DNA of 57,474 nt from Candidatus Omnitrophota bacterium (GTDB lineage: Bacteria > Omnitrophota > Gorgyraeia > JABMRJ01): positions 1 through 57,474 of the forward strand of contig JABMRJ010000030.1 of NCBI GenBank assembly GCA_013202745.1, read 5' to 3'. The notes beneath the pieces are model-generated. The model saw only the letters and a list, made by a program, of their open reading frames with translations. It was not told the DNA's origin and did not search any database. Made by a program: the position numbers and the translations under genes. How positions within the stretch are numbered: the first letter of the stretch is position 1; every line of letters begins with the position of its first letter. Positions 6,780 through 57,029 of this stretch are shown here, one piece after another.

Positions 6780-6782
6780 CCC

Positions 6783-8015: not shown

Positions 8016-8021
8016 AGGATA

Positions 8022-15006: not shown

Positions 15007-15019
15007 CTGATATTCTCCA

Positions 15020-37881: not shown

Positions 37882-37883
37882 AG

Positions 37884-38555
37884 TTATTTAGACAACTCCT
37901 TTAAAACCATGAAGCTCTCTGCATATTTAAAACCAGCTGTTGCGCCCCTGAAGGTTGCGAGAGTTTTTATGTTTTTTACGCTTCTTGGAAACGGGTGTCT
38001 TCCTATCTCATTCTTAAAGATCTTCATGATCTCGATCTTTTTCGCTATAAATTCGCTTATATCCACAAAATAATTCGGCACAAATACAGAATCTTTCGTG
38101 GGAGGTGCAAATTCTGTTTCGCTTATCGTCTCCATCATCAAAACCTTGTTCAGGAATGGATAGCGGAACGTCTTTGTGCAGCTGTATGCGGCCTCGAAGA
38201 TTACTTTGTGATCACTGTGAACATCTCCGTTAAACGGCAGATAAAGTATATTCGGTTTAATGGCCTTGAATACTGTTGATATACTCTTAACCATCTCTTG
38301 CTTCGGAAACTCCTTCACCTGTGTCGTAGGAATATCAAGCATCTTAACGGCCTCAAATCCATACATGTTTGCAACAGACTTTATCTCCTTATCCCTTCTG
38401 GCTATCTCATCCTTCTTAAAGCCCTGCTCGCTTTTTATGCTCGTGGCAATAAGCCAGTATATCTTATCGCCTTTCTTTTTATGCTTTAGAAGGGAGCCTC
38501 CGCAGCCTAGGGTCTCATCATCCGGGTGGACAGCAAGGATCAGTACCTTATTCAT
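37884..38555 (-). CDS. PIG-L/LmbE-family N-deacetylase
   Basis: ..VLILAVHPDDETLGCGGSLLKH.. and ..GDVHSDHKV... Clear paralog of the 47844-48542 product. Confidence 0.85.
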   Translation of the reverse strand: MNKVLILAVHPDDETLGCGGSLLKHKKKGDKIYWLIATSIKSEQGFKKDEIARRDKEIKSVANMYGFEAVKMLDIPTTQVKEFPKQEMVKSISTVFKAIKPNILYLPFNGDVHSDHKVIFEAAYSCTKTFRYPFLNKVLMMETISETEFAPPTKDSVFVPNYFVDISEFIAKKIEIMKIFKNEIGRHPFPRSVKNIKTLATFRGATAGFKYAESFMVLKELSK

Positions 38556-40437: not shown

Positions 40438-42864
40438 TTACTTTCCTTTAAAGATTAGATAGTTCCCCATCACAAGACAATCCAGGCCGCATGAAAAGAA
40501 TGTCCGCACTGCATCCTGGGGTGAGCAGACTATCGGTTCGCCATTTATATTAAAAGAGGTATTCAAGACCACAGGGATACCCATCACCCTGTTAAATTCC
40601 GATATCAATCCGTAGAAACTCGGATTCATCTCTTCCGAAACGGTCTGGAGCCTTCCCGTCCCGTCAATGTGTACAACCGCCGGAATAAGCCCTTTCTTAT
40701 CTTTTTTGACCTTGCAGACCTTCTCCATAAAAGGCACGCTGTTGCCTCCGGATGTCTCAAAATAATCTTTTGTATACTTCTCCAATACCGAAGGTGCAAA
40801 AGGACGGAAGGTCTCTCTATACTTAACCGCCTTGTTTACGATATCTTTAGTCTTTACCTGGCGCGGATCTGCCAGGATGGAACGGTTACCAAGCGCCCTT
40901 TGGCCAAACTCCATACTCCCCTGGAACCAGCCTATAAGCATGCCTTCTGAGATAAGTCTTGCCGTTATCTTCTCGATATCCTTATGGAAGGTATATTTAA
41001 GCTTATGTTTATCGAGGACCTCCTTAATCTCTTTGTTAGAAAATTCCGGACCCCAATAATTGTGCTGCTGGAAATGGCGTTTTTTATGGCCGAGTATGCA
41101 ATTGTATAAATAGAGCGCTCCTCCTATAGAAGTACCGCTGTCGTCTGGGCACGAAGAGATGAAGAGCTCTTTAAAGGGCGTCAAGTCCAGCAGTTTCCCG
41201 TTAAATACGGAGTTCATAGCGCATCCTCCGGAAAGAACGAGTTTGCTGCATCCGGTCGCGGCATGGAGGTGATTCAGCATATGGACGGCTATCTCTTCGA
41301 ATATTTGCTGTGCAGCAACCGCTATCTGCGTATGCCTATCACTTATCTTGCTATCCTTTTCCCTTGCCGGCCCTAAAAGTTCTATGAGCTTTTCAGTATA
41401 CATCGTATGCTGCCTGTCAAAGAGATAGAAGGTAAAATATGATAGGTCAAGCTCAAAGGTGCCGTCCTTCTTCAATGTTATGATACTCTTAAGCTTCCTA
41501 TAATATTTATTGTCTCGCTTGCCATAAGAGGCCAATGCCATGACCTTCCACTCATCGGAATCAGGCCTGAATCCCAGGTATTCGGTAATGGCCCCGTAGA
41601 ATAACCCGAGTGAATGCGGCATCATAACAGATTGAATCTTTTTTATGCTATTACCTTTCCCTTTCGCAAATAGACATGTTTCATTTTCACCCCTCCCATC
41701 CATCGTAAGTATTGCAGCCTTCTCAAATGGAGAGAGTAAAAATGCATTTGCGGTATGCGCATCATGGTGATTAATAAAAAAGAGGGAGAGATCCTTGCCA
41801 TTCAGGGAGATCTTCTGTTCTATGTGCTTAGGATCTGAGCTGTAGAACTGGTTCAAGAGACAGCTTGGTGTTGAATATAGATATTCACCGCGCCATCTAA
41901 TAGGTTTCGAATATCTCATACTTGCCGATTTTATATGTAATGCCGGATTCCACGACATGACGATGTAGTCAATGTCATTAATCGTTATCCCTGCTCTATC
42001 AAGACAATAAGCTATCGCTTTATTAGGAAATGCGTTAGACATCTTCTGTCTGTCGAATCTCTCTTCCGGAGCCGCAGCAATAATCTTACCGTCTTCTATC
42101 AGGGCCGCTGAAGAAATCCAGATATCCGGGCTTATACCGAGTATTCTCACGCCATAACCTCTTTTTTTAGAGGTTAACTGTTTCTTTCTAGTTACCCTGT
42201 TATCGGGATCATGCTCAAATCTATAACCGCTCAGATCGATATAGGCACCAGGCATATCAGGATAAGTGGATGCCTTTATCCTTTTGGCTATCTCTTTTTT
42301 TGACATCCTGGGGCTTATTTTGCATAATGCCTCTAAATCATTACGCTTATAAGGCTTTCTCTTCCACTTTTCAGTGCAATGCGGAAGTTCTTTTCTATCC
42401 AAAACAAAATTCATAACATCTAAGAATGCCGAAAACATTTCGTCGTAGCTTTTCATGCTCAGGTTATATATCGAATCGGATTCCAGCAGACGAAACCTCT
42501 TTACCGATATTATCTTGCCCGTATCAACCTTTTTGTCCATGATATGGGCTGTAACACCATAGGTCTTTTCGTTGTTGTAGACGGCAAAATTAAAACAACC
42601 TATACCAGGATACTCCGGAGGGCCGGGATGGAAATTGATATTCCAGAGCTTTGTCCTCTTTAGAATCTTACTGGGAATTATCCATGGTGATAGATAGGAT
42701 ATTATTATATCTGGAGATTCATTATAAGGTTGCTTTGGAAAAGGATCCTTCACCCCTCCCGGATATATAGTTAATTTCTCTGAATGCCTCTTTAAGTACT
42801 CTATTACCTCTTTTACTGTATACTTTTCGGGTTTTGTGAATAATGTGACTTTCATCTTAAACAT
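40438..42864 (-). CDS. Fusion protein: N-terminal formyltransferase-fold domain plus NodU/CmcH-family carbamoyltransferase
   Basis: Residues about 1-230 contain ..LWNINFHPGPPEYPGIG..GVTAHIMDKKVDTGKII... The remaining roughly 570 aa contain ..ILGISPDIWISSAALIEDGKIIAAAPEERFDRQK.., ..FFINHHDAHTANAF.., ..LNTSFNINGEPIV.. (carbamoyltransferase N and C domains). Confidence 0.8.
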   Translation of the reverse strand: MFKMKVTLFTKPEKYTVKEVIEYLKRHSEKLTIYPGGVKDPFPKQPYNESPDIIISYLSPWIIPSKILKRTKLWNINFHPGPPEYPGIGCFNFAVYNNEKTYGVTAHIMDKKVDTGKIISVKRFRLLESDSIYNLSMKSYDEMFSAFLDVMNFVLDRKELPHCTEKWKRKPYKRNDLEALCKISPRMSKKEIAKRIKASTYPDMPGAYIDLSGYRFEHDPDNRVTRKKQLTSKKRGYGVRILGISPDIWISSAALIEDGKIIAAAPEERFDRQKMSNAFPNKAIAYCLDRAGITINDIDYIVMSWNPALHIKSASMRYSKPIRWRGEYLYSTPSCLLNQFYSSDPKHIEQKISLNGKDLSLFFINHHDAHTANAFLLSPFEKAAILTMDGRGENETCLFAKGKGNSIKKIQSVMMPHSLGLFYGAITEYLGFRPDSDEWKVMALASYGKRDNKYYRKLKSIITLKKDGTFELDLSYFTFYLFDRQHTMYTEKLIELLGPAREKDSKISDRHTQIAVAAQQIFEEIAVHMLNHLHAATGCSKLVLSGGCAMNSVFNGKLLDLTPFKELFISSCPDDSGTSIGGALYLYNCILGHKKRHFQQHNYWGPEFSNKEIKEVLDKHKLKYTFHKDIEKITARLISEGMLIGWFQGSMEFGQRALGNRSILADPRQVKTKDIVNKAVKYRETFRPFAPSVLEKYTKDYFETSGGNSVPFMEKVCKVKKDKKGLIPAVVHIDGTGRLQTVSEEMNPSFYGLISEFNRVMGIPVVLNTSFNINGEPIVCSPQDAVRTFFSCGLDCLVMGNYLIFKGK

Positions 42865-43949: not shown

Positions 43950-44940
43950 TGTATATACCCGGTTTATAAATTTTCATGTTGTCTTTATTCCTAAACCACT
44001 CTATAGTTTCATCTATGCCTTTGTCAAGTGAGTATCTCGGCTTCCAACCTGTCAACTCTGTAATCTTTTTGTTGCTTCCCAAAAGTTCCATTACCTCGGA
44101 CTTTTCCGGCCTTATTCTTGCATTATCACATATTATCTTTGCCCCGGGGTTTATCTTCCCTATAATCTTCTTCCCCAGCTCTCCTATTGTAACTTTTTCA
44201 CTGCTTGCAATATTGATCTCTTCGCCTATAGTATTGTCAGAACTTGCAATGGCTATGAAAGCATCGCACACATCTTTTACGAAATTAAAATCTCTGGCAG
44301 GCTCCAAATGACCAAGCTTTAACTCCCTGCCGCCGTTTAATAATTGCGTAATGATCGTAGGTATAACCGCCCTTGCAGACTGCCTGGGGCCGTAGGTATT
44401 GAACGGCCTGACTATAGTAACGGGTGCATTAAATGACCTGTAAAATGACTCTGCTATTTTATCCGCACCTATCTTTGTCGCGCTATATGGCGACTGCCCC
44501 TGCAGGGGGTGTGTCTCTTCTATGGGTATGCTTACTGCAGTACCATAGACCTCAGATGTGGAAGTCATAAACAACCTCCCTGCATTAAGGTCTATACCTG
44601 CCTGAAGTATGTTCAATGCGCCTTTTATATTCGTATCTACATAAGAATCGGGTGCATGGTAAGAGAATGGTATGCCGACAAGCGCCGCTAGATGAAAAAC
44701 TGCGTCAACGCCCTTCATGGCCTTTCTCACGCTATTTGAGTCCCGCACATCTCCGGGAAATACCTCGATTTTTTCTATTTTTTCACGGCTGAATCCATCG
44801 AGCCAGCCCCAGGAGTTAAATGAATTATAGAAAACAAATGCCCTGACCCTGCAGCCCTCATCCAGCAAGCGTTCAACGAGATGGCTTCCTATGAATCCGT
44901 CTGCGCCCGTTACAAGAACCTTCTTATTTTTTAGATTCAT
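43942..44940 (-). CDS. NAD-dependent nucleotide-sugar 4,6-dehydratase (LegB-like SDR)
   Basis: ..KVLVTGADGFIGSHLVERLL.., ..FYNSFNSWGWLD.., catalytic ..SPYSATKIGADK.. Confidence 0.8.
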   Translation of the reverse strand: MNLKNKKVLVTGADGFIGSHLVERLLDEGCRVRAFVFYNSFNSWGWLDGFSREKIEKIEVFPGDVRDSNSVRKAMKGVDAVFHLAALVGIPFSYHAPDSYVDTNIKGALNILQAGIDLNAGRLFMTSTSEVYGTAVSIPIEETHPLQGQSPYSATKIGADKIAESFYRSFNAPVTIVRPFNTYGPRQSARAVIPTIITQLLNGGRELKLGHLEPARDFNFVKDVCDAFIAIASSDNTIGEEINIASSEKVTIGELGKKIIGKINPGAKIICDNARIRPEKSEVMELLGSNKKITELTGWKPRYSLDKGIDETIEWFRNKDNMKIYKPGIYNV

Positions 44941-46610
44941 TTATCTTTTCTCCAATCTTTCTCTCTTTTTGCCTTTTCAGGAAAAAGGTATGTTTCCATA
45001 AATTCGTTATTAGGATGCTGTGGGTTCTTTGACAAATAACTTAAAAGCTGCCCTTCATCAAAGATTACCCGGTTCTGACCATTAAATTCCATATTAACAA
45101 AATCACATCTCTTTTTTAAAAGCTCCATCGGTTCAGGAAAAGGCCTAATGGGGCTGCCTGCCATACAAAAAGCGATTACCAGCTTATTCGTACATAGTGT
45201 TATTGGAAAGGCTGTGGTCTTTACATGTGTAAAAATAAAGGCGTCGGCAAGCGACAGGTAATCTTCGAGATAACCCTTCAATACCTTAACTCTGCTTTTA
45301 AAAATACTCTCGACTTCCGGTAAATTTTCAGGATGCGCCTTATAAAATACCTCATAACCGGCATCTTTGAGAAGATCTATGATGCGCAGTTCAAGATCTA
45401 ACTGCATAAATCCTAAAGCGGACGGAGTCAGATGTTTTCTTAAATGTGTATAAAGATAACCCACCATCATTACCTTCTTAACCTCCTTCGGTAATTTTTT
45501 CTTGTTATACATCTTGTACCATTTATAGTATTCATTGCTGTCAGCGGATTTGATTACGGTATTAACGGGCCTAAGAGGTTTATGGCTCTTTTTAATCTTC
45601 TCAAAGAGTTCAATGCTCTTGGTAGTATATGTAATAAATTCATCCGAAAGCGCAAATTCTGAAAATGCCATTGTCGGAGTATCAAATAGACCTATGTGGC
45701 CGCCATGGCTAAAACTTGTAATCCTCCCTCCTTGTCGGCGAACTGCTATAGAGAGCGCTCTAATAAACGGACTATTTAAATTAGCTGTCAATAAATGAAT
45801 TTTTTTTCTTCTCATTTTGATTTCATCTTTTAATGCTCCGAGTATTCTGGCAGAAAATATTAATTCGTTTTGCATCATTTGTCTTAGATGATCAATATGC
45901 ACATTAAAGATCTCAATCTCATTTTTGACGGCTATCGATCTCAATTCATCGGCAAAGGCCCTCGATATCTCTTTTATGGCATTCTCTTTCTTATTGGGTA
46001 TCATATAAGTGAATCTTTTCGGCAACCAATCGGACGGTGATGTAAAATAGGTATAATATGGCGCCTTTTTAATATATTCACCCGTAAGAGAGCTTACTGA
46101 ACCGCAGAATAATGCGTTCTCTTCATTATCTTTTGGTTTAAAGCATTTAAGAGGATTTGAGTTATATATTACATTCTTGGCAATCTTTTTTATAGTGATC
46201 TCTGTATTCTTGCAAAAGGTGTAATTACAAAGATCACACATAGGCCTACCTATGTTCGGTATGGGATTTTCCGCGGGATAATGGTCTGTTGTGAGCTTCT
46301 TATACCAGGGCGTATGATCTGTATATAAAATACGCATTCCCAGCCTACCTATCTTCTGTATTACCTTCAAGGCATGTAAAAAATGGAGGTATTCAGTAAC
46401 CAGGTACCGCTGAATAAGAAATATATCGCCTATCTCTTCCGGCTGGGTGGTTATATATCTCCTTAAAGAGGCGCTGATATCCTCATATAACGCAAAGAAT
46501 TCGCTGTCGGATACAGGCCAAAAGAAATCATTTCGCCATTTCTCTATTCCGTATTCTTTAATCTTTATTATATCAACCGGGAAATATCTATCTTTGCAGC
46601 CCTGTGCCAT
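44937..46610 (-). CDS. Hypothetical protein; C-terminal GT-B-like half with KxHP-type motif (candidate CMP-NulO transferase)
   Basis: 557 aa, soluble. ..KIHLLTANLNSPFIRALSIAVRRQGGRITSF.. and ..GYEVFYKAHPENLPEV..ADAFIFTHVKTTAFPITLCTNKLVIAF... Distant by-eye similarity to the 29761-31314 product. Confidence 0.35.
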   Translation of the reverse strand: MAQGCKDRYFPVDIIKIKEYGIEKWRNDFFWPVSDSEFFALYEDISASLRRYITTQPEEIGDIFLIQRYLVTEYLHFLHALKVIQKIGRLGMRILYTDHTPWYKKLTTDHYPAENPIPNIGRPMCDLCNYTFCKNTEITIKKIAKNVIYNSNPLKCFKPKDNEENALFCGSVSSLTGEYIKKAPYYTYFTSPSDWLPKRFTYMIPNKKENAIKEISRAFADELRSIAVKNEIEIFNVHIDHLRQMMQNELIFSARILGALKDEIKMRRKKIHLLTANLNSPFIRALSIAVRRQGGRITSFSHGGHIGLFDTPTMAFSEFALSDEFITYTTKSIELFEKIKKSHKPLRPVNTVIKSADSNEYYKWYKMYNKKKLPKEVKKVMMVGYLYTHLRKHLTPSALGFMQLDLELRIIDLLKDAGYEVFYKAHPENLPEVESIFKSRVKVLKGYLEDYLSLADAFIFTHVKTTAFPITLCTNKLVIAFCMAGSPIRPFPEPMELLKKRCDFVNMEFNGQNRVIFDEGQLLSYLSKNPQHPNNEFMETYLFPEKAKREKDWRKDK

Positions 46611-47184
46611 AAATCCTTATCCTTTTCCTCTGCTTAAGAAACTCTTGTTGAGAAATGCCCATATATATTTTATCCATATACCTGCCTTCAAAATTATAAA
46701 GATCCTTTATTCTCCCTTCAACCTTAAACCCGACCTTTTTGTACAGCTTTATCGCCGCTACATGCTTTTGGCAAACACCGAGAAAAACCTTATTCAAATT
46801 CAATTTCGTAAATGAATATTCCAGAAGAAGGCGGCAGGCCTCCTGTCCGTAGCCCATGCACCAGCATCTTTTCTCACCTATCATGATTCCAAGGTCACCA
46901 TATCGATGTGTCCAATTTATCTTACCCAACTTAACATTACCTATATGAATATTTTCCTTTTTCGTAACTATAGCAAACATAATATTATCTTTAGATTTTT
47001 GCATATTCTGAAAATATTTTTGTAAACTAGTATATGTGGTTGGAGAACCCTTGTTTATCATGTATTTAACAACGCTGTTGTCATTGAGCCATGACAGGTA
47101 CCTTCTGTTTATATCCTTTTTTACAATAGGCCTAAGATATATCTTATCACCTGCAAGAAGAGGTCCTTTATGCCTTTTTCTCAT
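46588..47184 (-). CDS. GNAT N-acetyltransferase, RimJ/RimL/PseH-like
   Basis: ..IYLRPIVKKDINRRYLSWLNDNSVVKYM.. and ..RCWCMGYGQEACRLLLEYSF.. Confidence 0.75.
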   Translation of the reverse strand: MRKRHKGPLLAGDKIYLRPIVKKDINRRYLSWLNDNSVVKYMINKGSPTTYTSLQKYFQNMQKSKDNIMFAIVTKKENIHIGNVKLGKINWTHRYGDLGIMIGEKRCWCMGYGQEACRLLLEYSFTKLNLNKVFLGVCQKHVAAIKLYKKVGFKVEGRIKDLYNFEGRYMDKIYMGISQQEFLKQRKRIRIYGTGLQR

Positions 47185-47187
47185 AAA

Positions 47188-47865
47188 CTATTTTCCACTA
47201 CACTTTTCTTTACGAATCTTCAGGGTGTACTTATATCCCTTGTGCCTAAAGAAAGCCGGGAACCTCTTATTATTCACAATTCTTAATAAGTTAAATTGCT
47301 CTTTTAGCGTCTTATCCATATCCAATGCACTATCAACCGGCTTCCTCCTTTTGTAAAAAGTAGACTTACCCTTCTGTTTTTCTGGTCTCAATCTTTTATA
47401 TTCAGTTAAAAATCTTAAACAGAGGTCTAGCGTTTTTCTCGCCTGCTTTTCTCTTATCTCACTATTCAGTTCGTGGCCTTTCATTTTTATATAATCTTTT
47501 AAGTACAAATCTCCATCGTCAATTTTTTCATTTGCATCGAATAAAACTATCGGCACTACATTCTTGCCTTCCAGTACCTGCCAGAATAATGGTGCCCACC
47601 CTTTACCTTTCGGGAGATCACTCTCGTGTACCACTAAATTATGTTTATGCTTCCGCAAATATCCTGCTCCTATCAGGCGCGTATAATTTAATATAAATAC
47701 TATTTTGTAGTTCTCATCGATCTTTCTGTGATCATAGAATAGCCCGGGCCTTAATCTCTTATTCTTAAGTGTTGCAACGAATTGCCTTGCATAAGGGAGA
47801 AACCAGCTCCCTTTTGAGGTCAATACGGCTACACTCTTAGAATTCATCTTATCACCCTGACGCAT
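47188..47865 (-). CDS. Formyltransferase-fold protein, divergent (catalytic Asn position replaced)
   Basis: ..HNLVVHESDLPKGKGWAPLFWQVLEG..VLFDANEKIDDGDLY... His and Asp are kept. The residue two before His is Val, and RG is replaced by KG. Confidence 0.55.
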   Translation of the reverse strand: MRQGDKMNSKSVAVLTSKGSWFLPYARQFVATLKNKRLRPGLFYDHRKIDENYKIVFILNYTRLIGAGYLRKHKHNLVVHESDLPKGKGWAPLFWQVLEGKNVVPIVLFDANEKIDDGDLYLKDYIKMKGHELNSEIREKQARKTLDLCLRFLTEYKRLRPEKQKGKSTFYKRRKPVDSALDMDKTLKEQFNLLRIVNNKRFPAFFRHKGYKYTLKIRKEKCSGK

Positions 47866-48542
47866 TCAAATGCTTCCGCGTGGCTCAGGCCGACTACGCT
47901 GCCCCGTAGTTTTGCAAGATTTCTGACAGATTTATCCGATCGAGGATGCGGGAAGTTCCTATATTCTGTCTTATAAATCTTGAGGGCCTTGATCTTTCTG
48001 TCTATAGTCTCAGATATATCGATAAAGACATTGGGATTAAAGCGATTGGGGTAATTCCACTCTGTTGCAGAGGGGGTTTCAAAAGAGTAGATCTCCTTGG
48101 TCTCTTCCCCTCTCATCGGCCTGCAGGCTGTCAAGACGGCCTTAAAGACTATCCTATGGTCTACATTCAGATCATTCCAGTGGTGAGTATAGATTATGCT
48201 GGGATTTATCTTATCCTTAACCTTCTCAATAACCTTTATAATATCCAACAAGGGGGTTTTATCAAATCTATTATCCGGGAACTGATATATAAAAAGCTTT
48301 TTTACGCCAATAGCGTCATTGGCCTTATGGGCTTCGTTCTGCAATCTCTTTATATCATCCATCCGGGCCTTCTTTCTACGTTTCGTATCTCTTGAGGTTA
48401 TCCCCTCTCCCAAGATAAGGGTGGCCGCGTTAAACCCTTCTTTAATTAAGCGCGCAAGTGTCCCACCGCAGCCCAGGATCTCATCATCAGGGTGTGCGGC
48501 AACGACTAAGATATCCCTTCTCTTCTCCCGCTTTATCATCAC
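47844..48542 (-). CDS. PIG-L/LmbE-family N-deacetylase
   Basis: ..ILVVAAHPDDEILGCGGTLARL.. and ..DLNVDHRIV.. Confidence 0.85.
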   Translation of the reverse strand: MMIKREKRRDILVVAAHPDDEILGCGGTLARLIKEGFNAATLILGEGITSRDTKRRKKARMDDIKRLQNEAHKANDAIGVKKLFIYQFPDNRFDKTPLLDIIKVIEKVKDKINPSIIYTHHWNDLNVDHRIVFKAVLTACRPMRGEETKEIYSFETPSATEWNYPNRFNPNVFIDISETIDRKIKALKIYKTEYRNFPHPRSDKSVRNLAKLRGSVVGLSHAEAFECVRVIR

Positions 48543-49936
48543 TTATTCTCCTCTGATCTGCTTATGCAAGTCATATTATCAAAAACCGGTTTATAGCTAC
48601 CCTCCAACTCCCTTTCGAAAAGATGCTTATAAACTCCAAATTCTTCGTTATATGTCTTAATATATTCGCTAAGAATATTCGACGGTATCCAGGTTATATC
48701 GTCTCTCTCTTCAAATCTTGAAGATATGCTCCTGCCGGTCCAGCCTTCGAGGCTATTTGGAGAAGTATATCCGTTTGCGCAGGCCTCTTTGTACATAGGT
48801 GTACTAGGTAGCGGTAGATAGATGCAATTTTGAATAACGCTGCCAGGATTAATCTTTTTCAATCTTCTTATATGATTAATCGTATCTTTAAGATCATTTA
48901 TGGTCTCTGAAGGCGTTGCAAACATAAACGAGGCATAAAATTCTATACCAAATTCATGGCAAATCTGGGCACACCTCTCTGCCTGTTCCGGTTTTGTATG
49001 CTTTCGCATTCTTTCCAATACGTGTTCTGAGCCGGATTCGACCCCGAAGAAAAGGGATGCAAGACCTGATTCTTTTAGTAAGATCATCTCTTCTTTTGAA
49101 TAATCTAATAGAGAACTCACCCTGGCCTTGGCCTTCCATTTTATGTTCAATCCTGACGTAATAAAAAAACGGGCGATATCCATTACCCTTTCTTTTTTGA
49201 TAAAATATGTTCCGTCTTGAATAAATATATTCTTAAACCCCAGCTTATTGACTATAAAGAGTATCTCATTTTTAACCTGCTCAAACTTCTTCTCGGAATA
49301 ATTATTATCCGGGGCCGTACAAAAGGTGCATCGGAACGGACACCCTCGAGCAGTAAAGACCGAGGCTACATTATTTGGGGATCTGTATTTTTCAATATTA
49401 ATCAAATGGAATCCTGGAAAGAGATCATAATCGAAAGGCCTGGGGTCAGCCTTGGTGTTTTGGTAAATCGTTTGGTTTCTTTTATACGCAATACCGGAGA
49501 TATCTGTATAATCTTTATTGCTATAGATCCTGCCTGCTATTTCAGGCATTACATATTCACCCTGCCCCAAAGCCACTATATCTACACAAGCCGATTGCAA
49601 GGTCTCTGCCGGCAGGGCCGTAGCATGTGGCCCTCCCCATATTGCAAGTACTTCCGGATTCATACCCTTGCATATCCTGATAGCTTCCAGGGCATCCCTT
49701 ATATCAGAGCCGGTCATAGCAGTAATCCCCAGGCACAGAGCATCTTTAGCGGCCTTGGCCAACTTATTTTTCCAGTCAGGTTCTACCCTTGCATCAATAA
49801 TAATAGCCTTGAAGCCGGCCTTTTCTAAAAAAGGCCCTATATATAGATATGGGAAAGGAAACCAATGATACTTACCCATCCCTTCATAGGAAGGATAAAA
49901 CAAAACTACTTTGCCTTTATTCAAGTCTCTTCTCAT
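48539..49936 (-). CDS. B12-binding-domain radical SAM enzyme (class B-like)
   Basis: N-terminal ..KVVLFYPSY..YLYIGPFLEKAGFKAIIIDARVE.. (B12-binding-type domain), then ..ARGCPFRCTFCTAP.. Confidence 0.8.
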   Translation of the reverse strand: MRRDLNKGKVVLFYPSYEGMGKYHWFPFPYLYIGPFLEKAGFKAIIIDARVEPDWKNKLAKAAKDALCLGITAMTGSDIRDALEAIRICKGMNPEVLAIWGGPHATALPAETLQSACVDIVALGQGEYVMPEIAGRIYSNKDYTDISGIAYKRNQTIYQNTKADPRPFDYDLFPGFHLINIEKYRSPNNVASVFTARGCPFRCTFCTAPDNNYSEKKFEQVKNEILFIVNKLGFKNIFIQDGTYFIKKERVMDIARFFITSGLNIKWKAKARVSSLLDYSKEEMILLKESGLASLFFGVESGSEHVLERMRKHTKPEQAERCAQICHEFGIEFYASFMFATPSETINDLKDTINHIRRLKKINPGSVIQNCIYLPLPSTPMYKEACANGYTSPNSLEGWTGRSISSRFEERDDITWIPSNILSEYIKTYNEEFGVYKHLFERELEGSYKPVFDNMTCISRSEENK

Positions 49937-49938
49937 AT

Positions 49939-51156
49939 TTATACCTTCGACAAAAGCTGGATTGTCGCGTCCTTAAATACAGCCATCTTGGGCCTGGAAA
50001 ATTCACCGGCTATAATCTTTAATATATGCTTCCATGATTTCTCCCAGATTAACGATTCCGGATTATCAAATGTATCAAATGTGCTATGCCCCTTGTAAGG
50101 TGAAAAGATAATATATTTCACCTTGGGCTTTAAAAAAGTCCTTATTTTAAAACATCTTCCGCTTATAAATTTGCCGTAACTGCGGAGCAGGTAATGATTG
50201 ATCTGGCCGTGCGGATTATGCGTTATCAGAATGAGAATCCCTCTTTTAGGATTCAGCAATTTAATAACATTATGTATTGCGAGATCCGCTTCATTTGATT
50301 TGGCATAGGCATTAGCGATTATTACGTCATAATCCTTCCCGTGAGGTGTAAGATATGCCTTTTTGGCCAAGCGAACCGCTTCCTTGAATTCCGATATGGG
50401 GTCACCGGCAAAACAGGCTACCTCATCCCCGTTTGTGTTCATGATAAAATCTATCTTCAATTGAAAATTCGCCATCCTCACCGCCTCTTCAATAGACCCG
50501 GCTCTAATATTCTTCTTTTGCTTGCCGAGACCGGAGATCCCTTTTCTGAGAGAATGGAATTTATCTATCGTCTTAATATGACTAATACCGGGGACTACTA
50601 TTTTACCTCCTCCGCTAAAGCCGCAGTATACATGCGGCAGTACGGAACCGATTCCTATCTTTAAGTCACATGATACAAACTCCTTATTTAAATATATGGG
50701 AACTCCGCTTGAGCTCATTCCTATATATGCGCAATTCTCAAAACAGTTATGATTATACACAGGATAGTTAGCAACTATGTCACTTCCGAGCTTCTTTTTA
50801 AATTCGTCTAATCTGTGAGCCCCGTGAGAGCCTGTGGAAATTATAAATCTTATATTATTCTTTTTTATCCCCCCGGATTTCAACTTCTCAAGTATATAGG
50901 GGATTATTTTATACGGTTTTGTAGGCCTTGTCATATCATCGAAGAGTATCACCGCTTCTCTTTTTCCCTTGGCAAGGAATTCCAACTTTTCGCAACCTAT
51001 AGGGTTGTCTATGGCCTTTTTCATTTCCCTTAAAGAGATCTTCTTCCAGTTATCAGCTGCCATATCGCAGATATCGACCTTCCATTTATCCGGAAAGGTC
51101 AAGACAACCTCTCTTTTTTTAGACCAGAATCCCTGTAAAATAGTTACTCTCTTCAT
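49939..51156 (-). CDS. LarA-like protein (nickel-pincer-nucleotide-dependent racemase/epimerase family, DUF2088)
   Basis: ..AVILFDDMTRPT.., ..FIISTGSHGAHR.., ..LPHVYCGFSGGGKIVVPGISHIKTIDKFH.. match the conserved LarA blocks (substrate/cofactor Arg, catalytic His residues, cofactor-tethering Lys, Ni-binding His). Confidence 0.7.
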   Translation of the reverse strand: MKRVTILQGFWSKKREVVLTFPDKWKVDICDMAADNWKKISLREMKKAIDNPIGCEKLEFLAKGKREAVILFDDMTRPTKPYKIIPYILEKLKSGGIKKNNIRFIISTGSHGAHRLDEFKKKLGSDIVANYPVYNHNCFENCAYIGMSSSGVPIYLNKEFVSCDLKIGIGSVLPHVYCGFSGGGKIVVPGISHIKTIDKFHSLRKGISGLGKQKKNIRAGSIEEAVRMANFQLKIDFIMNTNGDEVACFAGDPISEFKEAVRLAKKAYLTPHGKDYDVIIANAYAKSNEADLAIHNVIKLLNPKRGILILITHNPHGQINHYLLRSYGKFISGRCFKIRTFLKPKVKYIIFSPYKGHSTFDTFDNPESLIWEKSWKHILKIIAGEFSRPKMAVFKDATIQLLSKV

Positions 51157-51160
51157 ATAT

Positions 51161-52192
51161 TTACACGCAATCCGAATATATTGGAAAATTTTTCTTTATA
51201 TTCTTTTTTGATTTTTTTCCTATAACCTTTTCAAAATAGGCCGTACTTAACCCGGGTTTTACCAAAGGCCTCTTCATTCCGACTATATCTCTACCTATTA
51301 TCTGGCCTTTCTTAATATCCGTTTCGGCAATAAGGCATCTTCTATATTTATCTCTTACGCCAAATTCTTTCGGTGAGGGTGATTTTTTAAGATCCCCCAG
51401 TGTTTTTTCAATATATCTTATATTGTCGACCAGGCGTTTTAACTCTACGGCGCTATAGGAAAAACTCTGTTCCGGACCGCCGATATTTCTATCAATAGTA
51501 AAATGTTTCTCGACTACCCTGGCTCCCAGGCAAATAGCAGCTACTGATGGAAGATCGCTCCTTGTATGGTCTGAATATCCTATGGGATAAGAAAATGATT
51601 CTCTCAATACCTTGATAGCGTTTAAATTTAACTGATCCGGCCCTGCAGGATAGAGAGAAGTGCAATGAAAAATTATAAGATCCTTTACGCCTCTTCTTTC
51701 GAATTCCGACACTACCATCTTAACCTCGGAAAGATATGACATTCCCGTAGAGATCATTACCGGTATCTTCAACTTTGCCATCCTACGCACCAGAGCGATA
51801 TTTGTCATGCTGCCTGATGAAATCTTTATTACAGGCAATTTTACAGCTTTAAAGATATCTACGCTCAGTACATCAGCCGGTGCGCTAAAAAAAATAATAT
51901 TATTTTGCAAAGCGGCTTTTTTTAATCTCTTCCAATCGTTGAGAGTGAACTTCATGTGTTTATATATATTATAGGGCAAAGTATCCTTTATATAACTGGC
52001 ATCTGCATCTATAGTCTGAAACTTTACCGCATCAGCGCCGCAGCGTTTTGCCGCTTCTATCATTTTTATAGCAACTTCAATATTTCCATTGTGATTCGTG
52101 CCGGTCTCTGCAACTATAAACACCGGTGATCTGTCACCAATGGTACGCTTGCCTATCTTTACAATCTTTCTTGTTCGATTAGAGATTGCCAT
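51161..52192 (-). CDS. NulO synthase, NeuB/PseI-like, with SAF domain
   Basis: ..VFIVAETGTNHNGNIEVAIKMIEAAKRCGADAVKFQT.. and a C-terminal ..RCLIAETDIKKGQIIGRDIVGMKRP.. Confidence 0.85.
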   Translation of the reverse strand: MAISNRTRKIVKIGKRTIGDRSPVFIVAETGTNHNGNIEVAIKMIEAAKRCGADAVKFQTIDADASYIKDTLPYNIYKHMKFTLNDWKRLKKAALQNNIIFFSAPADVLSVDIFKAVKLPVIKISSGSMTNIALVRRMAKLKIPVMISTGMSYLSEVKMVVSEFERRGVKDLIIFHCTSLYPAGPDQLNLNAIKVLRESFSYPIGYSDHTRSDLPSVAAICLGARVVEKHFTIDRNIGGPEQSFSYSAVELKRLVDNIRYIEKTLGDLKKSPSPKEFGVRDKYRRCLIAETDIKKGQIIGRDIVGMKRPLVKPGLSTAYFEKVIGKKSKKNIKKNFPIYSDCV

Positions 52193-53258
52193 TGCCGAAT
52201 CCCCCTATAAAAAGATGCTGCCAATATCTATAGAATCTTACGGGTTTTCTCTGAAATTTGAAATGTCTCCTTCTGAAAGCACCGTTTAAGGCATAAGAAA
52301 TCATCTCTTGAAAATAATTGATCCCAAGCCCTTCCACTATGGGGAGCGTTGCATCAATCCTCGGATTTACTTCTATAAGGCACGGCTTACCGTATTTATT
52401 GCGCCCTACTTCTACCTGAACAAAATAATCAAAATTTAAAAGCGCTGCAATATTCTCGGCATAATCGATTATATCTTTATCAAATACGATATCTGCTAAT
52501 TGAGTCGGGCTATTAATGGGAAATATCTTTTTCCTGCAAACAGATGCAACTGCCCTGCCGTGCTCCACTAATATATCCACTGAATAACGGGGCCCTGGAA
52601 AATACTCCATTACGAAAAATCGGCTTAACTCTTTCGAGTGTCTTCTAAAGATATTAAGAATCTCGTTTAGGGAAGTAAAATAAAACTCATTTTTAAAGAA
52701 TTTTTCATAAAGGCTGCAATCATGCGTTATTATCCTCATGCCCCTGGAACCCCGCGCAGTTCTGGGTTTAATTATAACTTTTTCTTTAGGGTATTTCAGT
52801 CTTCTACAGTATTTTTTGATATCACTTATTTTTATTAATTCATAAAATTTGCCTGTGTAAATCTTATTTTTTCTAAGCTGCTCCATTAGCTTAAGTTTAT
52901 CCAGGCTCATTTCGATAGATTTAGCATCTGAACAGGCGATCTTAGTGCCTGATGAGAGAAATCTTTCTTTATGTCGCGACAATATCATAGCCTCTTCATC
53001 AGACCCTGGAAAGATAACTGCTACCTTTTGAGTCCTGCAAATATCTAGCATTGCCGATATATATCCCTTTTTATCCGGATAGGGTACACTGAAGAAGTGA
53101 TCGCAAAAATGCCTCCCCGGTAAATTTTCTTTTATGCCGGCATCAACACCTATTACAATGGTCTTATGCTTTTTATTCTCTCTGATCATTTTTATCAGGC
53201 CGGGAGCAACCTGACTTCCCGCCGAGGTCAGCATTATACTTACTGTTTTAATAGCCAT
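52179..53258 (-). CDS. ATP-grasp family ligase
   Basis: ..KVIIKPRTARGSRGM.., ..VMEYFPGPRYSVDIL.., ..CLIEVNPRIDATLP.. Confidence 0.75.
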   Translation of the reverse strand: MAIKTVSIMLTSAGSQVAPGLIKMIRENKKHKTIVIGVDAGIKENLPGRHFCDHFFSVPYPDKKGYISAMLDICRTQKVAVIFPGSDEEAMILSRHKERFLSSGTKIACSDAKSIEMSLDKLKLMEQLRKNKIYTGKFYELIKISDIKKYCRRLKYPKEKVIIKPRTARGSRGMRIITHDCSLYEKFFKNEFYFTSLNEILNIFRRHSKELSRFFVMEYFPGPRYSVDILVEHGRAVASVCRKKIFPINSPTQLADIVFDKDIIDYAENIAALLNFDYFVQVEVGRNKYGKPCLIEVNPRIDATLPIVEGLGINYFQEMISYALNGAFRRRHFKFQRKPVRFYRYWQHLFIGGFGNGNL

Positions 53259-54226
53259 TTTGCGACTCGCCCTGCTCCTTTGCCATCAATTAAACTTTTA
53301 CCGATTTCGTTTCGCTTAAGCCTTTCGGAATAATCCCTCATGATAGAAATTTTTTCCAGCAACTTTTCCATGAGATTCTTATCATCGTATCTGCCCGCGC
53401 ATTCGGCAAATCCTTTTCTGTGCCACCCTGCCGTATTAAGGAGTTGATTATCAGCCGCTGTTATACTTACAGTGGGAATCCCTATCCTTGCAAGCTCATA
53501 TAGGGTCTGGCCGCCTGCTGATATGCTCATATCAGAAGCCAGCATGGCTGCCCTCATCTCATCTGCGCTCGGGTCATATACGAAACAATCGTCTCCTCTC
53601 TTCAATTTATCGATATCTGCGATATTATTAAAACCTTTGCCAATGATAACCTTTTTCGATATTCGTGGAAATCTCATATTTAGTAGTTCTAAAACCTTGG
53701 GCGTAGTCCTGTTTTTATCAACAGCGCCGAAGGTTATCATAATACTGCGTATATCATTATTTATCTCTTTCTCAGGGACAAGCCAGAATTCCTTCCTCAA
53801 TAAGGCATACTCAGGCCCTAAAAGATAGGTTATATTGTCCTTATCCGGATAATTCAATTCCTCGGTATATAAAGCGCTGTTTAGAACGGCTCCCCGGGGG
53901 TAGTCCAATCTTTTAAAATCGTCTATATAAAGAGGTGCCTCTACTGTATTAGATATCTCCTCATAGAGATCCAGATCCGACAAATAAGAATCTACTACAA
54001 CGGCATCTGCATCTTTAATGACGCTCGATAACCTTCTTCTATCCTTTGTCCAGTCAAACATATAAAAATCTCTGTCCTTTATCAAGGACTCGACCGTTTT
54101 ATCTCCGTTTACGACAAATTTAGTCTCTATCTTTTTCTCACCAAGGGCCTGGCATAAAGAGATACATCTCGCGATGTGCCCAAAACCTATATGCCTTCCG
54201 CCTTCTGTTATAATTATCGTCTTCAT
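53240..54226 (-). CDS. pseG: UDP-2,4-diacetamido-2,4,6-trideoxy-beta-L-altropyranose hydrolase (PseG-like)
   Basis: ..MKTIIITEGGRHIGFGHIARCISLCQAL.. and ..MSISAGGQTLYELARIGIPTVSI.. Confidence 0.8.
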   Translation of the reverse strand: MKTIIITEGGRHIGFGHIARCISLCQALGEKKIETKFVVNGDKTVESLIKDRDFYMFDWTKDRRRLSSVIKDADAVVVDSYLSDLDLYEEISNTVEAPLYIDDFKRLDYPRGAVLNSALYTEELNYPDKDNITYLLGPEYALLRKEFWLVPEKEINNDIRSIMITFGAVDKNRTTPKVLELLNMRFPRISKKVIIGKGFNNIADIDKLKRGDDCFVYDPSADEMRAAMLASDMSISAGGQTLYELARIGIPTVSITAADNQLLNTAGWHRKGFAECAGRYDDKNLMEKLLEKISIMRDYSERLKRNEIGKSLIDGKGAGRVAKWLLKQ

Positions 54227-54232
54227 ATAGAG

Positions 54233-55012
54233 TTATATCGGCTGCTTGTCTTCTCTTAGGGATTTTAAATACCCTTCGCCCTGCATAATATGCCTGTTTA
54301 GATCCTCCAAGTGCGCATTATGCCCGAGAAACCTTAGGACATCTTCCATATTAAAACCTGGATTTTTAATATACAGTGATTCCAAAATAGACTTTATAAG
54401 TTCGAAGTCTTCGCTTTTATCCAGAGTCCACCTCTTGCTGCTAAGATTTATTTCGTTTTTCAAATTTACCAATTTAAATATATCCCCTCTCTTTCTGATG
54501 TATGGTGTGACATGCTCCCTCTCAGAAAGCAAATCTGCGTTATTCCACGCATGCTCCAGGGCCCCAAAAGTAAATACCTCCACATCGAGCCCGTCCGGAA
54601 AAGTCCTATCCAGGATATTTGAGCAATAATCTGCATGAGACTCAAAATAGAGGCTTACCGTCTTATTGATTATGCCAGGATCCATTAAGGGGCAATCGGC
54701 GCATATCCTTATTATATGCTGCATCTTATAGAGTTTCGCAGCCTGGTAAAACCTATCCAGGACGTCTTTTTCAGACCCGCGAAATACCTTTACCCCTAAA
54801 CTCTCCGCCAGGTTAACTATTCTTAAGTCTTCGCCCTTCATTGAAGTGGCGATTGCAATGTCACTTACACTTTTAGCGTTTTTTATGCGCTGGACTATAT
54901 ATTCCAGGATAGGTTTTCCAAGAACTTCAAGCAAGACCTTTCCCAGCAATCTTGTAGAACCAAGGCGTGCCTGTATGATAACGTCTGCTTTCTTCATATC
55001 TTCCAATTGCAA
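54233..55012 (-). CDS. SpsF-type cytidylyltransferase (candidate CMP-pseudaminic acid synthetase)
   Basis: ..ADVIIQARLGSTRLLGKVLLEVLGKPILEYIVQR..IAIATS.. Confidence 0.7.
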   Translation of the reverse strand: MQLEDMKKADVIIQARLGSTRLLGKVLLEVLGKPILEYIVQRIKNAKSVSDIAIATSMKGEDLRIVNLAESLGVKVFRGSEKDVLDRFYQAAKLYKMQHIIRICADCPLMDPGIINKTVSLYFESHADYCSNILDRTFPDGLDVEVFTFGALEHAWNNADLLSEREHVTPYIRKRGDIFKLVNLKNEINLSSKRWTLDKSEDFELIKSILESLYIKNPGFNMEDVLRFLGHNAHLEDLNRHIMQGEGYLKSLREDKQPI

Positions 55013-55884
55013 GGAAGGATTACTTCCTCATCATGAAATTTAATCGATTCTAAAAGACCGTGCATATCTTTAACTTCGTCCATATACTCTAAAGATGCTA
55101 TATTCTCTTTAAGCTGTTCCAGGGAATCTACTCCGATTATCACTTTGTCTATAGAAGAATTCAGCATGGCAAAACATATGCATAGAGCCTGAATCGGTAT
55201 TCTGCTCTCCCTAGATATATTGCGCAATTTTTCCATAGAATCCATTGCCGGCTGAAAATTCTTCTCTATTGCATCCATATCTATAAAAAACAGTCCCTGC
55301 AAAAAGATTGAGCGGGTATGCACCTCTATGCCCTTTTCCTTAAGTTTAGGCATCTTTTCTTTAAATCTCTGATCAAAGAGATTGTAAGGGATCTGGATAA
55401 TATCGAATGATATTCTGTTATCTAATAAATAATTGAGATCTTCCACCCTGTTTATAGAGAAACCTATCTTTTCAATAACCCCCTTCTCCTTCATTGATTC
55501 AAGGGCGCTCCACAAGCCCTCTTTATAGGCAGCAATATCGCTGGACTTATGCACCAGATAGCCGTAGATCTTATTGCGCCTGAGCCTATCCAGCGTCTCT
55601 AGACAAATCGATTCTATGCCTGCAATGCCATTGTCGCCGAGTTGCGGTAATTTGGATATAATGTTGAAGCTTAACCCTGATCCTGATATAAAATCCCCTA
55701 TGGTCTTTTCGCTTTCTCCGTAAGAATGGGCTGTATCCAGAGTATCGATACCTGAGTTATGCGCAAATTCTAAAATTTGGAATACCTCATTTCTGGCAAT
55801 TTTGCCGTTTACATTTGCAATACCGTAATCGAAGCCGAATTGCGCAGTCCCCAAACAGAGTTTTTTTGTAATAACGTCTTTCAT
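54994..55884 (-). CDS. Aldo/keto reductase family oxidoreductase
   Basis: ..KLCLGTAQFGFDYGIAN.., ..GIDTLDTAHSYGESE.., ..IQIPYNLFDQR.. Confidence 0.85.
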   Translation of the reverse strand: MKDVITKKLCLGTAQFGFDYGIANVNGKIARNEVFQILEFAHNSGIDTLDTAHSYGESEKTIGDFISGSGLSFNIISKLPQLGDNGIAGIESICLETLDRLRRNKIYGYLVHKSSDIAAYKEGLWSALESMKEKGVIEKIGFSINRVEDLNYLLDNRISFDIIQIPYNLFDQRFKEKMPKLKEKGIEVHTRSIFLQGLFFIDMDAIEKNFQPAMDSMEKLRNISRESRIPIQALCICFAMLNSSIDKVIIGVDSLEQLKENIASLEYMDEVKDMHGLLESIKFHDEEVILPCNWKI

Positions 55885-57029
55885 TATTGAAAAAATTCCC
55901 TCACTCTTTTTATAACTTTAGATTGATCACGCCTTGATAACCCTACGTATAATGGCAAGCTTAGGCATTCTGCAGAATATCTTTCTGATACTAAAAAATC
56001 GCCGCGCCTATACCCGAGTAAATTGCGGTAGTATGACAAAAGGTGCAAAGGTATATAATTTACCTGTGTGGAGATGTTATTTTCTTTAAGATAGCTGTAC
56101 AGCTTATCACGGCGGCCTCTTTGCATTCTAATCACATAAAGATGGTAAGAAGCGTTTGTTCCTTCTCTTTCATAAGGGAGCCTAATTCCTTCTACTTTCC
56201 GCAGGCTTTCATTATAATATCCGACTATTCTCCTTCTAATATTTATCATTTTATCTATCTTCTTTAATTGAGAAATGCCCAGAGCGCACTGGAAATCAGT
56301 AATGCGGTAATTAAACCCTACCTGGGGGATGTCATAAGACCACGGCTTCTTACTGCTTCTGACTATACCATGATGCCTCAATCTTAATGCCGATTTATAA
56401 ATCTTCTTGTCGTTTGTAAGGAGCGCCCCTCCTTCGCCCGTTGTTATCTGTTTTATAGGGTGGAAGCTGAATATGGTCGCTTTTGAATCTTCGCATCTGC
56501 CCACTTTAATCCATTTGTCTTTAAATTTATATGCTGCGCCCAATGCATGGGCAGCATCCTCAACTATGCTTATCCCGTATCTATCGCAGATCTTTTTCAT
56601 CTCGGCGATATCCGCTACCGTCCCCATAAAATGGACCGAAACTATAGCCTTTACCCCTTTCCTATTTGAAGGGACCTTTAGAAAACTCTTTAGCTTCTCT
56701 ATGTCTAGATGATAAGTCTTGTCGTCAATATCAACAAATAGGGGTCTGGCACCTACATATAGTGCGCAATTTGCGCTCGCTGAAAAGGTAATGGGTGATG
56801 TTATGATCTTATCCCCCTTACCTATACCGAGTGTCAGCAATGAAAGGTGCAATGCCGCTGTTCCGCTAGATAGAGCAACGCTATACTTTGCGCTCGTGTA
56901 CTCACAGAGCGCGGCCTCAAACTCGCCAATCTTGGGTCCTTGTGTAATCCAGTCTGATTTAAGGACCTTGACCACCTCATCGATATCATTACCGTCTATA
57001 TATTGACAGCTATATAGAAGAGACTTCAT
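55884..57029 (-). CDS. pseC: UDP-4-amino-4,6-dideoxy-N-acetyl-beta-L-altrosamine transaminase (PseC-like DegT aminotransferase)
   Basis: ..YSCQYIDGNDIDEVVKVLKSDWITQGPKIGEFE.., ..IVEDAAHALGA.., ..FSFHPIKQITTGEGG.. Confidence 0.85.
   Translation of the reverse strand: MKSLLYSCQYIDGNDIDEVVKVLKSDWITQGPKIGEFEAALCEYTSAKYSVALSSGTAALHLSLLTLGIGKGDKIITSPITFSASANCALYVGARPLFVDIDDKTYHLDIEKLKSFLKVPSNRKGVKAIVSVHFMGTVADIAEMKKICDRYGISIVEDAAHALGAAYKFKDKWIKVGRCEDSKATIFSFHPIKQITTGEGGALLTNDKKIYKSALRLRHHGIVRSSKKPWSYDIPQVGFNYRITDFQCALGISQLKKIDKMINIRRRIVGYYNESLRKVEGIRLPYEREGTNASYHLYVIRMQRGRRDKLYSYLKENNISTQVNYIPLHLLSYYRNLLGYRRGDFLVSERYSAECLSLPLYVGLSRRDQSKVIKRVREFFQ

Follow-up and report, generated by a model that had tools for sequence, protein, structure and literature searches.

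A LarA homologue conserved in nonulosonic acid operons of uncultured organisms: a possible supplier of 2-hydroxy acids for sugar N-acylation

Every characterised LarA homologue uses free 2-hydroxy acids, glycerate included (PMC11770544; PMC7583248). In the enzyme from Lactobacillus plantarum (LarA_Lp) the substrate carboxylate is held by Arg75, two His residues, Gln295 and Lys298, and the 2-hydroxyl group by Tyr294 (PMC11851776); Lys298 is counted as catalytic (PMC7583248). LarA_Lp is also described as providing a ligase of the cell envelope with a single enantiomer of a 2-hydroxy acid (Goffin 2005). As for bacterial glycans, N-glyceroyl and 2,3-di-O-methylglyceroyl pseudaminic acids exist, their genetic basis has been called unresolved, and a logic of deacetylation followed by substitution has been proposed for Cj1295 (PMC5378307; PMC3068675). 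In both Pse5Am7Gra from Tannerella forsythia and 2,3-di-O-methylglyceroyl-Pse from Campylobacter jejuni (Pse, pseudaminic acid), an N-acetyl group is swapped for a 2-hydroxyacyl group; neither a LarA homologue nor an ATP-grasp ligase has been reported for these systems. Here we describe a gene for a 405-aa LarA homologue in contig JABMRJ010000030.1 of a Candidatus Omnitrophota bacterium (assembly GCA_013202745.1), a stretch of 57,474 nucleotides referred to below as the window. The gene lies in a predicted operon for the biosynthesis of nonulosonic acids (NulOs), a context unlike that of LarA, which belongs to lactate metabolism.

The protein appears in databases only under the name "DUF2088 domain-containing protein", but its domain, its fold and the residues of its N-terminal domain place it in the LarA superfamily. 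The Lar_N score is 182.4 bits against a Pfam gathering score of 23.3, and the best PDB matches found by phmmer are Mar2 (2.9e-34) and LarA_Lp (1.1e-30); Mar2/LarAH6 (6D6Z), the closest solved structure by sequence, is also matched in a profile search (1.6e-57) and provides the best NCBIfam model. An AlphaFold2 model obtained with 117 homologues as input reached a predicted local distance difference test score (pLDDT) of 95.1 and a predicted template modelling score (pTM) of 0.93, and Foldseek matched it over its full length to the LarA structures from L. plantarum (6C1W, 5HUQ) and Isosphaera pallida (9EIA, 9EID), with template modelling (TM) scores of 0.81-0.84 and an E-value of 1e-30. The two-domain fold is thus the same as in LarA, at 19-24% sequence identity and with 405 residues versus 424.

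The conserved blocks of the N-terminal domain are found at residues 72-79 (FDDMTRPT), 107-115 (STGSHGAHR), 174-185 (PHVYCGFSGGGK) and 197-201 (IDKFH). In alignments produced by phmmer, hmmsearch, hhalign and MAFFT, D74, R77, H111, H175, K185 and H201 correspond to Asp72, Arg75, His108, His174, Lys184 and His200 of LarA_Lp, namely the Asp/Arg pair, the two catalytic His, the Lys that tethers the nickel-pincer nucleotide (NPN) and the Ni-binding His, which are shared with both the L. plantarum and the I. pallida enzymes. Among 165 family sequences, the cofactor and catalytic residues are kept in at least 99%, and R77, H111, H175, K185 and H201 are invariant. An earlier reading of the window, made from its letters and open reading frames (ORFs) and called here the sequence-only reading, had assigned the protein to LarA on the basis of this His/His/Lys/His set; both the assignment and the set withstood the four alignment methods and the structural comparison, and the two ORFs it had singled out, the LarA homologue and a radical S-adenosylmethionine (SAM) enzyme, were recovered on the minus strand at the coordinates it had given (Table 1).

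The equivalog models of NCBIfam are not reached, neither that for LarA (NF033504, 172.5 versus 460 bits) nor that for LarAH6 (NF052593, 205 versus 500 bits); the latter match covers positions 8-281 of the 415 of the profile, and the sequence match ends near residue 285. The protein belongs to none of the functionally defined LarA groups, and no counterpart of Lys298 was recognised in it. The two residues that follow His175 are a hydrophobic one and a Tyr, the latter (Y177) being specific to the clade described below; following the loop rule of PMC7583248, this segment resembles that of LarAs acting on small substrates. In Mar2, by contrast, the second catalytic His is followed by Y-K rather than V/L-Y, and no sign of a site for a second carboxylate was seen in the window protein.

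Whether other members of the family neighbour neuB homologues, and where they fall within the superfamily, were matters raised by the sequence-only reading. When 169 sequences were placed in a neighbour-joining tree with LarA_Lp as the root, all the members found in a NeuB context fell into a single clade. In the window and in all the 10 further non-redundant loci of this clade (L001, L002, L161, L007, L160, L159, L088, L090/93, L091 and L094), a NeuB-family synthase and an ATP-grasp ligase adjoin the LarA homologue, in an order that varies among loci, and a PIG-L deacetylase is found within a few kb. This module is embedded in PseC, PseG, GNAT and cytidylyltransferase genes (contigs of P0002, P0004, P0011, P0012, P0016 and P0025; L088-L094). 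Identity to the window proteins is 41-69% for the LarA homologue, 41-63% for the ATP-grasp ligase, 40-70% for NeuB and 48-56% for PIG-L, and the four proteins diverge in parallel across the loci. The neighbourhoods of P0025, P0016 and P0011 were fetched after tree building, and all of them matched the predicted module. Conversely, the sister clades (32-42% identity) contributed about 135 non-redundant loci, and in their flanks of up to 10 kb no NeuB, ATP-grasp or PIG-L homologue was found. Mere co-location of the LarA homologue with glycan genes is therefore unlikely, since the adjacency holds in 10/10 loci over a range of 41-69% identity and in 0/~135 sister-clade loci.

Close homologues (P0002-P0011, 59-69% identity) are few and come from metagenomes only; in a library of representatives at 50% identity they form one cluster, represented by the window protein, and the next match has 41% identity. 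A scan of 185,579 GTDB representative genomes, among which the metagenome-assembled genome of the window and its close clade are not included, returned 80 loci, all at 42% identity or below and none with NulO genes. A second NulO-linked subclade (L088-L094) was supplied by a metagenome scan, which gave no full-length member above 43% identity. No open-access paper linking LarA/DUF2088 to NulO biosynthesis or clusters was found, and literature searches combining ATP-grasp with nonulosonic acids, or Omnitrophota with Lar genes, returned no relevant paper.

The reading that we favour, tentatively and with a confidence that falls just short of making it probable, is that the 405-aa protein is an NPN-dependent 2-hydroxyacid racemase or epimerase, giving the enantiomer needed for an N-(2-hydroxyacyl) pseudaminic-type sugar. 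The PseB-, PseC-, GNAT-, PseG- and NeuB-type enzymes would build a di-N-acetylated nonulosonic acid, from which PIG-L would strip one N-acetyl group, probably the one derived from N-acetylglucosamine (GlcNAc), on N5; the ATP-grasp ligase would then activate a small glycerate- or lactate-like 2-hydroxy acid as an acyl phosphate and use it to amidate the free amine. The LarA homologue would supply the enantiomer required by the ligase through proton-coupled hydride transfer, in which the hydrogen on C2 would move to C4 of the NPN, leaving a 2-keto acid intermediate, and the hydride would be delivered back on the opposite face. The B12-dependent radical SAM enzyme of the window, and SAM methyltransferases in sister clusters, might finally methylate the acyl group or the sugar. 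For the supply of one enantiomer to a ligase, LarA_Lp offers a precedent.

PIG-L enzymes act on GlcNAc-type moieties, from which they cleave the N-acetyl group, and the ATP-grasp ligase belongs to the amide-forming PylC/"CPSase-like" type (the NCBIfam "carbamoyl phosphate synthase-like protein" model is matched below its cut-off), and Ddl is also an ATP-grasp enzyme. The strict co-occurrence of PIG-L and ATP-grasp points to deacetylation and then re-acylation of a single sugar amine. A gene for a generic D-2-hydroxyacid dehydrogenase directly follows the LarA homologue on its downstream side in L160, is one gene off in L007 and lies elsewhere in the cluster in L088. The supply of a 2-hydroxy acid is favoured because of the substrates of known LarAs, of these neighbouring dehydrogenases and of the glyceroyl-Pse products already described; moreover, since ATP-grasp and PIG-L are always present and the dehydrogenase occurs in three clusters, the provision of an N-substituent fits better than epimerisation of the sugar backbone.

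Several points weigh against this reading. The Tyr294/Gln295/Lys298 clamp of LarA is not recognisable, and no Lys is found at position 298 in any of four alignments complemented by DSSP; the missing Lys298 is the chief reason for caution in calling the protein a racemase. The residues K286/N288/E289, H321/Y322 and D291, which occupy this part of the protein, do not form an obvious pocket for a small anion. Neither the 57-kb contig nor the examined flanks of the clade loci contain the cofactor biosynthesis genes larB, larC or larE. The 2-hydroxyacid dehydrogenase is found in only three of the ten clusters, and adjacency to ATP-grasp is inseparable from adjacency to NeuB, both occurring in 10/10 loci. 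Finally, among cultured organisms known for an N-glyceroyl Pse, none was shown to carry the NulO clade. For the unassigned genes of the T. forsythia Pse locus, the literature yielded no usable annotation.

The remodelling of the C-terminal domain deserves some detail. Depending on the method, position 298 falls on A293, L292 or N296; the alignments disagree in helix alpha11, and the only robust point across them in this region is that no Lys is present. In the model alpha11 is short (residues 291-300), shorter than in LarA, and residues 313-345 are non-helical yet confidently modelled. K286, N288, E289, H321 and Y322 are invariant in the family, and the NulO clade adds the acidic D291. As the region aligns ambiguously, a spatial substitute for the clamp, made by K286, E289 and H321/Y322, is conceivable. 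The NulO clade is set apart from its sister clades at Y177, S202, T241, D291 and F360; two of these positions lie in specificity regions of LarA, Y177 in the loop after the second catalytic His and D291 in the alpha11 region, which holds specificity residues (Desguin et al., PMC7583248).

Loss of the clamp is common to the whole family, including the members found beside sugar-acid dehydratases. Full-length sister-clade proteins, with 36-42% identity, share K286/N288/E289 and H321/Y322 with the window protein; the sister-clade loci were found in Dehalococcoidia, Syntrophaceae, Actinomycetota and Bathyarchaeota. They are flanked by ABC transporters, altronate/galactarate (GD_AH) dehydratases in 9 loci, amidohydrolases in 8, HpcH/HpaI aldolases in 4 and a second Lar_N gene in 3. 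This context suggests sugar-acid or amide substrates for a LarA subgroup lacking Lys298. By context, and not by a sequence-by-sequence correspondence, the sister clades resemble group 5 of Desguin et al. 2020, in which a LarA homologue is associated with an altronate dehydratase (COG2721).

Among the alternatives, one set of explanations, which we consider unlikely as a whole, removes racemisation from the picture: the protein could catalyse another hydride reaction, such as a redox isomerisation or a disproportionation, could work without NPN, or could share the locus and no pathway with its neighbours. Desguin et al. (PMC7583248) pointed out that groups without K298 may not invert a stereocentre and suggested another hydride-mediated reaction for them, and NPN chemistry beyond racemisation is documented for NphT (PMC13524815). 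The absence of larBCE from the window and the examined clade flanks would agree with a protein that does not use the cofactor; however, no variation is seen in the two catalytic His, the tethering Lys or the Ni-binding His, and simple co-location is opposed by the clade-specific adjacency reported above.

The sequence-only reading had rightly noted the absence of larB, larC and larE from the window, and Pfam searches on all ORFs, together with tblastn using verified LarB, LarC and LarE sequences, gave the same result. Such a window is not unusual, since many groups of LarA homologues are not adjacent to lar genes (Desguin et al. 2020). PP-loop genes of the window and of L088-L093 that had come up as LarE candidates through a Lar-motif regular expression were rejected, as they are asparagine-synthase-like. 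A physical link between the full-length family and cofactor biosynthesis was found in two loci only: L115 (36% identity; a 690-kb metagenome contig), where a divergent larB-larC-larE set lies at 6971-9970 beside the LarA homologue, and L135 (32% identity), with larE at 5281-6117. All these genes score above the NCBIfam cut-offs (LarB 279 bits, LarC 201+133, LarE 303 and 328).

A second alternative, to which we give no better prospects than to the preceding set, is that the enzyme epimerises a secondary alcohol of the NulO itself, for instance at C4 or C8, or of a 6-deoxy-hexosamine precursor, giving a stereoisomer beyond the standard Pse pathway. It draws on the presence of NeuB next to the LarA homologue in 10/10 loci, with translational coupling in the window (4-nt gap), and on a remodelled substrate-binding C-terminal domain that has lost the carboxylate clamp, where a sugar deacetylated by PIG-L could be held at its ammonium group by the clade-specific D291 together with the invariant E289. 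It is disfavoured because a NulO has no hydrogen on the C2 beside its carboxylate, and hexosamine precursors have no carboxylate at all: with the carboxylate of a NulO bound by the conserved R77 and the two His, no hydride would be available at the canonical position. Furthermore, no known LarA homologue acts away from C2 of a 2-hydroxy acid, the clamp was lost family-wide and hence not as an adaptation to NulOs, and the invariable ATP-grasp ligase and the 2-hydroxyacid dehydrogenases would be left unexplained. Thus, of the link to NulOs advanced by the sequence-only reading, the association itself holds, being clade-specific in 10 loci, whereas a NulO or its precursor as substrate is not borne out.

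The weakest alternative, epimerisation of the 2-hydroxyacyl group after its attachment to the sugar nitrogen, the substrate being an N-(2-hydroxyacyl) amide, would account for the loss of the Gln295/Lys298 clamp and for the adjacency to both NeuB and ATP-grasp, and an amide substrate is hinted at by amidohydrolases (8/141 flanking genes) and peptide/amino-acid ABC transporters (for example in L006) near non-NulO members, but it is without precedent, Arg77 is invariant and its counterpart in LarA binds the substrate carboxylate, and the sugar-acid dehydratases that are frequent neighbours of the family act on free acids, so that we regard it as quite improbable.

The genes of the locus are listed in Table 1. 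Apart from short antisense ORFs, all the listed ORFs of the window are on the minus strand, and in the region examined neighbouring ORFs lie only -23 to +6 nt apart; thus they are probably transcribed as one long operon. The gaps are 4 nt between NeuB and the LarA homologue, 2 nt between the latter and the radical SAM gene and -4 nt between this and PIG-L. The sequence-only reading had the distances of 2-4 nt right but the direction reversed, because on the minus strand NeuB is transcriptionally upstream and the radical SAM gene downstream. Nor is this pair wedged between two NulO pathways, as it had stated: both genes lie inside the Pse-like pathway, which spans 57474-46588, and the second, legionaminic acid (Leg)-like pathway starts about 5 kb further on and spans 44940-32116.

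Table 1. Genes of the Pse-like pathway and the gene that follows it (positions in the window)
Feature	Coordinates	Strand	Evidence
PseB-like 4,6-dehydratase, C-terminal part, frame open to the contig end	57010..57474	-	56% identity to the C-terminus of the L001 Polysacc_synt_2/Epimerase protein
DegT/PseC-type aminotransferase	55884..57029	-	63% identity to the L001 DegT_DnrJ_EryC1 gene
Aldo-keto reductase, 296 aa	54994..55884	-	KidO-like aldo-keto reductase model 113 bits, below cut-off
CTP_transf_3 cytidylyltransferase, candidate CMP (cytidine monophosphate)-NulO synthetase	54233..55012	-	NCBIfam cytidylyltransferase models below cut-off
PseG-type UDP (uridine diphosphate)-sugar hydrolase	53240..54226	-	TIGR03590 PseG 159.7 bits, above the cut-off of 153.55
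ATP-grasp ligase, PylC-like N domain and ATPgrasp_Ter	52179..53258	-	Pfam
NeuB-family nonulosonic acid synthase	51161..52192	-	NeuB 1.8e-67 and SAF domain
LarA homologue, 405 aa	49939..51156	-	Pfam Lar_N 7.9e-54
Class B (B12-binding) radical SAM enzyme, 465 aa	48539..49936	-	B12-binding and Radical_SAM domains
PIG-L/LmbE-family de-N-acetylase	47844..48542	-	PIG-L 4e-26; nearest NCBIfam model BshB1, below cut-off
Short formyltransferase-like protein, 225 aa	47188..47865	-	Formyl_trans_N 5.2e-07, partial profile match
GNAT N-acetyltransferase, PseH-like	46588..47184	-	Acetyltransf_3 6.9e-22; PseH 60.6 bits, below the cut-off of 93.1
557-aa protein, final gene before the Leg-like pathway	44937..46610	-	no Pfam/NCBIfam match

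Of the Pse-type equivalogs, only PseG scores above its cut-off, while NeuB, GNAT, DegT, the truncated PseB-like protein and the cytidylyltransferase are present below theirs; the NeuB-family synthase, in particular, reaches 299 bits with NeuB_NnaB and 256 bits with PseI (cut-off 340), both below cut-off. The product stereochemistry of the Pse-type cluster is therefore not fixed by these scores. In L001, L002 and L088, tblastn showed a homologue of the cytidylyltransferase in the corresponding place. CTP_transf_3 is fused to a class-III aminotransferase in proteins of about 685 aa in L159 (708-2759) and L161 (2736-4796); the two are separate genes in L001 and L088, and this aminotransferase is absent from the window. 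The short formyltransferase-like protein showed no conservation in the related loci. Proteins of about 550 aa similar to the 557-aa one, again with no Pfam or NCBIfam match, recur in L001 (14618-16234, 46% identity) and L159 (14740-16392); they may be glycosyltransferases for the modified sugar or other tailoring enzymes.

Genes for aldo-keto reductases are present in the L001 and L159 clusters too. Nickel-pincer-dependent members of this family were described in 2026 (NphT, PDB 9YEB; PMC13524815), and the reductase of the window was considered as one of them; this was unsupported, its match to NphT (1e-5) being no better than those to ordinary aldo-keto reductases. With no Ni-binding His in its GFSIN stretch, the reductase of the window probably works with NAD(P)H in the ordinary way.

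The assignment of the adjacent gene to class B radical SAM enzymes, made by the sequence-only reading, is substantiated by the B12-binding (PF02310, 1.1e-16) and Radical_SAM (PF04055, 2.6e-20) domains and by a CX3CX2C motif (CPFRCTFC) at residue 199. The same arrangement, an N-terminal B12-binding domain and a radical SAM core with CX3CX2C, is found in methylases of the TokK, CysS and Fom3 type. Distant PDB relatives of the protein are TokK and CysS, the nearest among solved structures, and AprD4 and OxsB, with E-values from 1e-11 to 1e-6; since AprD4 and OxsB, unlike TokK and CysS, are not methylases, similarity does not assign a reaction type. None of the named subfamilies (HpnJ, PhpK, BchE and others) was reached, the best being HpnJ with 142 versus 578 bits. 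Homologues occur in L002 (45% identity; three B12-dependent radical SAM genes), in L090/L091/L093 (58%) and in L159, and a more distant one, with 27% identity, in L094; the flanks of L001, L161, L160 and L088 yielded none. The B12-dependent radical SAM enzyme is thus a frequent but optional partner of the module, present in about half of the loci, and the coupling of the LarA homologue to radical C-methylation put forward in the sequence-only reading stands only to that extent.

Other functions also recur around the module. SAM methyltransferases accompany it in L001, L002, L088, L093, L160 and L161, and FabH/FabG/acyl carrier protein sets and asparagine-synthase-type amidotransferases are also common in the clade clusters; judging from these annotations, the operons of the clade appear rich in N-acyl tailoring functions. 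In L161, genes for an acyl carrier protein, an adenosine monophosphate (AMP)-dependent ligase, a second short-chain dehydrogenase/reductase and a two-subunit 2-oxoacid:ferredoxin oxidoreductase lie beside the NulO genes (13299-18232), a putative source of acyl units that one would not expect in a glycan operon.

The Leg-like pathway comprises LegB, above its cut-off, DegT, a carbamoyltransferase fusion, a second NeuB, a formyltransferase and a second PIG-L, followed by NeuC, HisF/HisH-like proteins, WbuX, a nucleotidyltransferase and a cytidylyltransferase. The fusion (40438-42864, 808 aa) joins a formyltransferase N-domain to a NodU/CmcH-type carbamoyltransferase and is encoded between the LegC-like aminotransferase and the second NeuB, which hints at an N- or O-carbamoylated sugar of the legionaminic acid type. 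At 33951-36715, WbuX (358 bits, above cut-off) is found with HisH-like and HisF-like genes, a trio usually tied to acetimidoyl (Am) groups on amino sugars. The plus-strand ORF of 343 aa at 36860-37891, which overlaps the NeuC-like gene in antisense, has probably arisen by chance.

Every annotatable ORF of the window is related to glycans. Three PIG-L deacetylases are encoded (47844-48542, 37884-38555 and 27264-28175), together with several formyltransferase-like genes, glycosyltransferases, Wzy_C, an ABC exporter and, at 3043-8015, three membrane glycosyltransferases of the PMT_2 type. Further radical SAM genes at 10166-11722, 15969-17204 and 9119-10162 code for a second B12-binding enzyme (518 aa) and for two SPASM-domain proteins; such a density of radical SAM genes is unusual for a polysaccharide locus.

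If the LarA homologue acted on the sugar or on an N-linked 2-hydroxyacyl group, which we find rather doubtful, it would be the first nickel-pincer enzyme to work on a glycan building block, and together with the B12-dependent radical SAM enzyme it would lead to a stereochemically modified or C-methylated nonulosonic acid of a kind not yet described. So far, nickel-pincer enzymes are known for racemising free 2-hydroxy acids in catabolism or salvage; a clade fixed in a cell-surface sugar operon would mean an anabolic role for this chemistry in glycan diversification. The PIG-L, ATP-grasp, LarA-type and NeuB proteins constitute a candidate four-gene module for the exchange of an N-acetyl group for a glyceroyl-type one on pseudaminic or legionaminic acids, and a family without the Lys298 clamp represents a test case for LarA action in its absence. 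Known from genomic context in uncultured organisms, this clade may thus be of real interest to the fields of both nickel-pincer enzymes and bacterial glycans.

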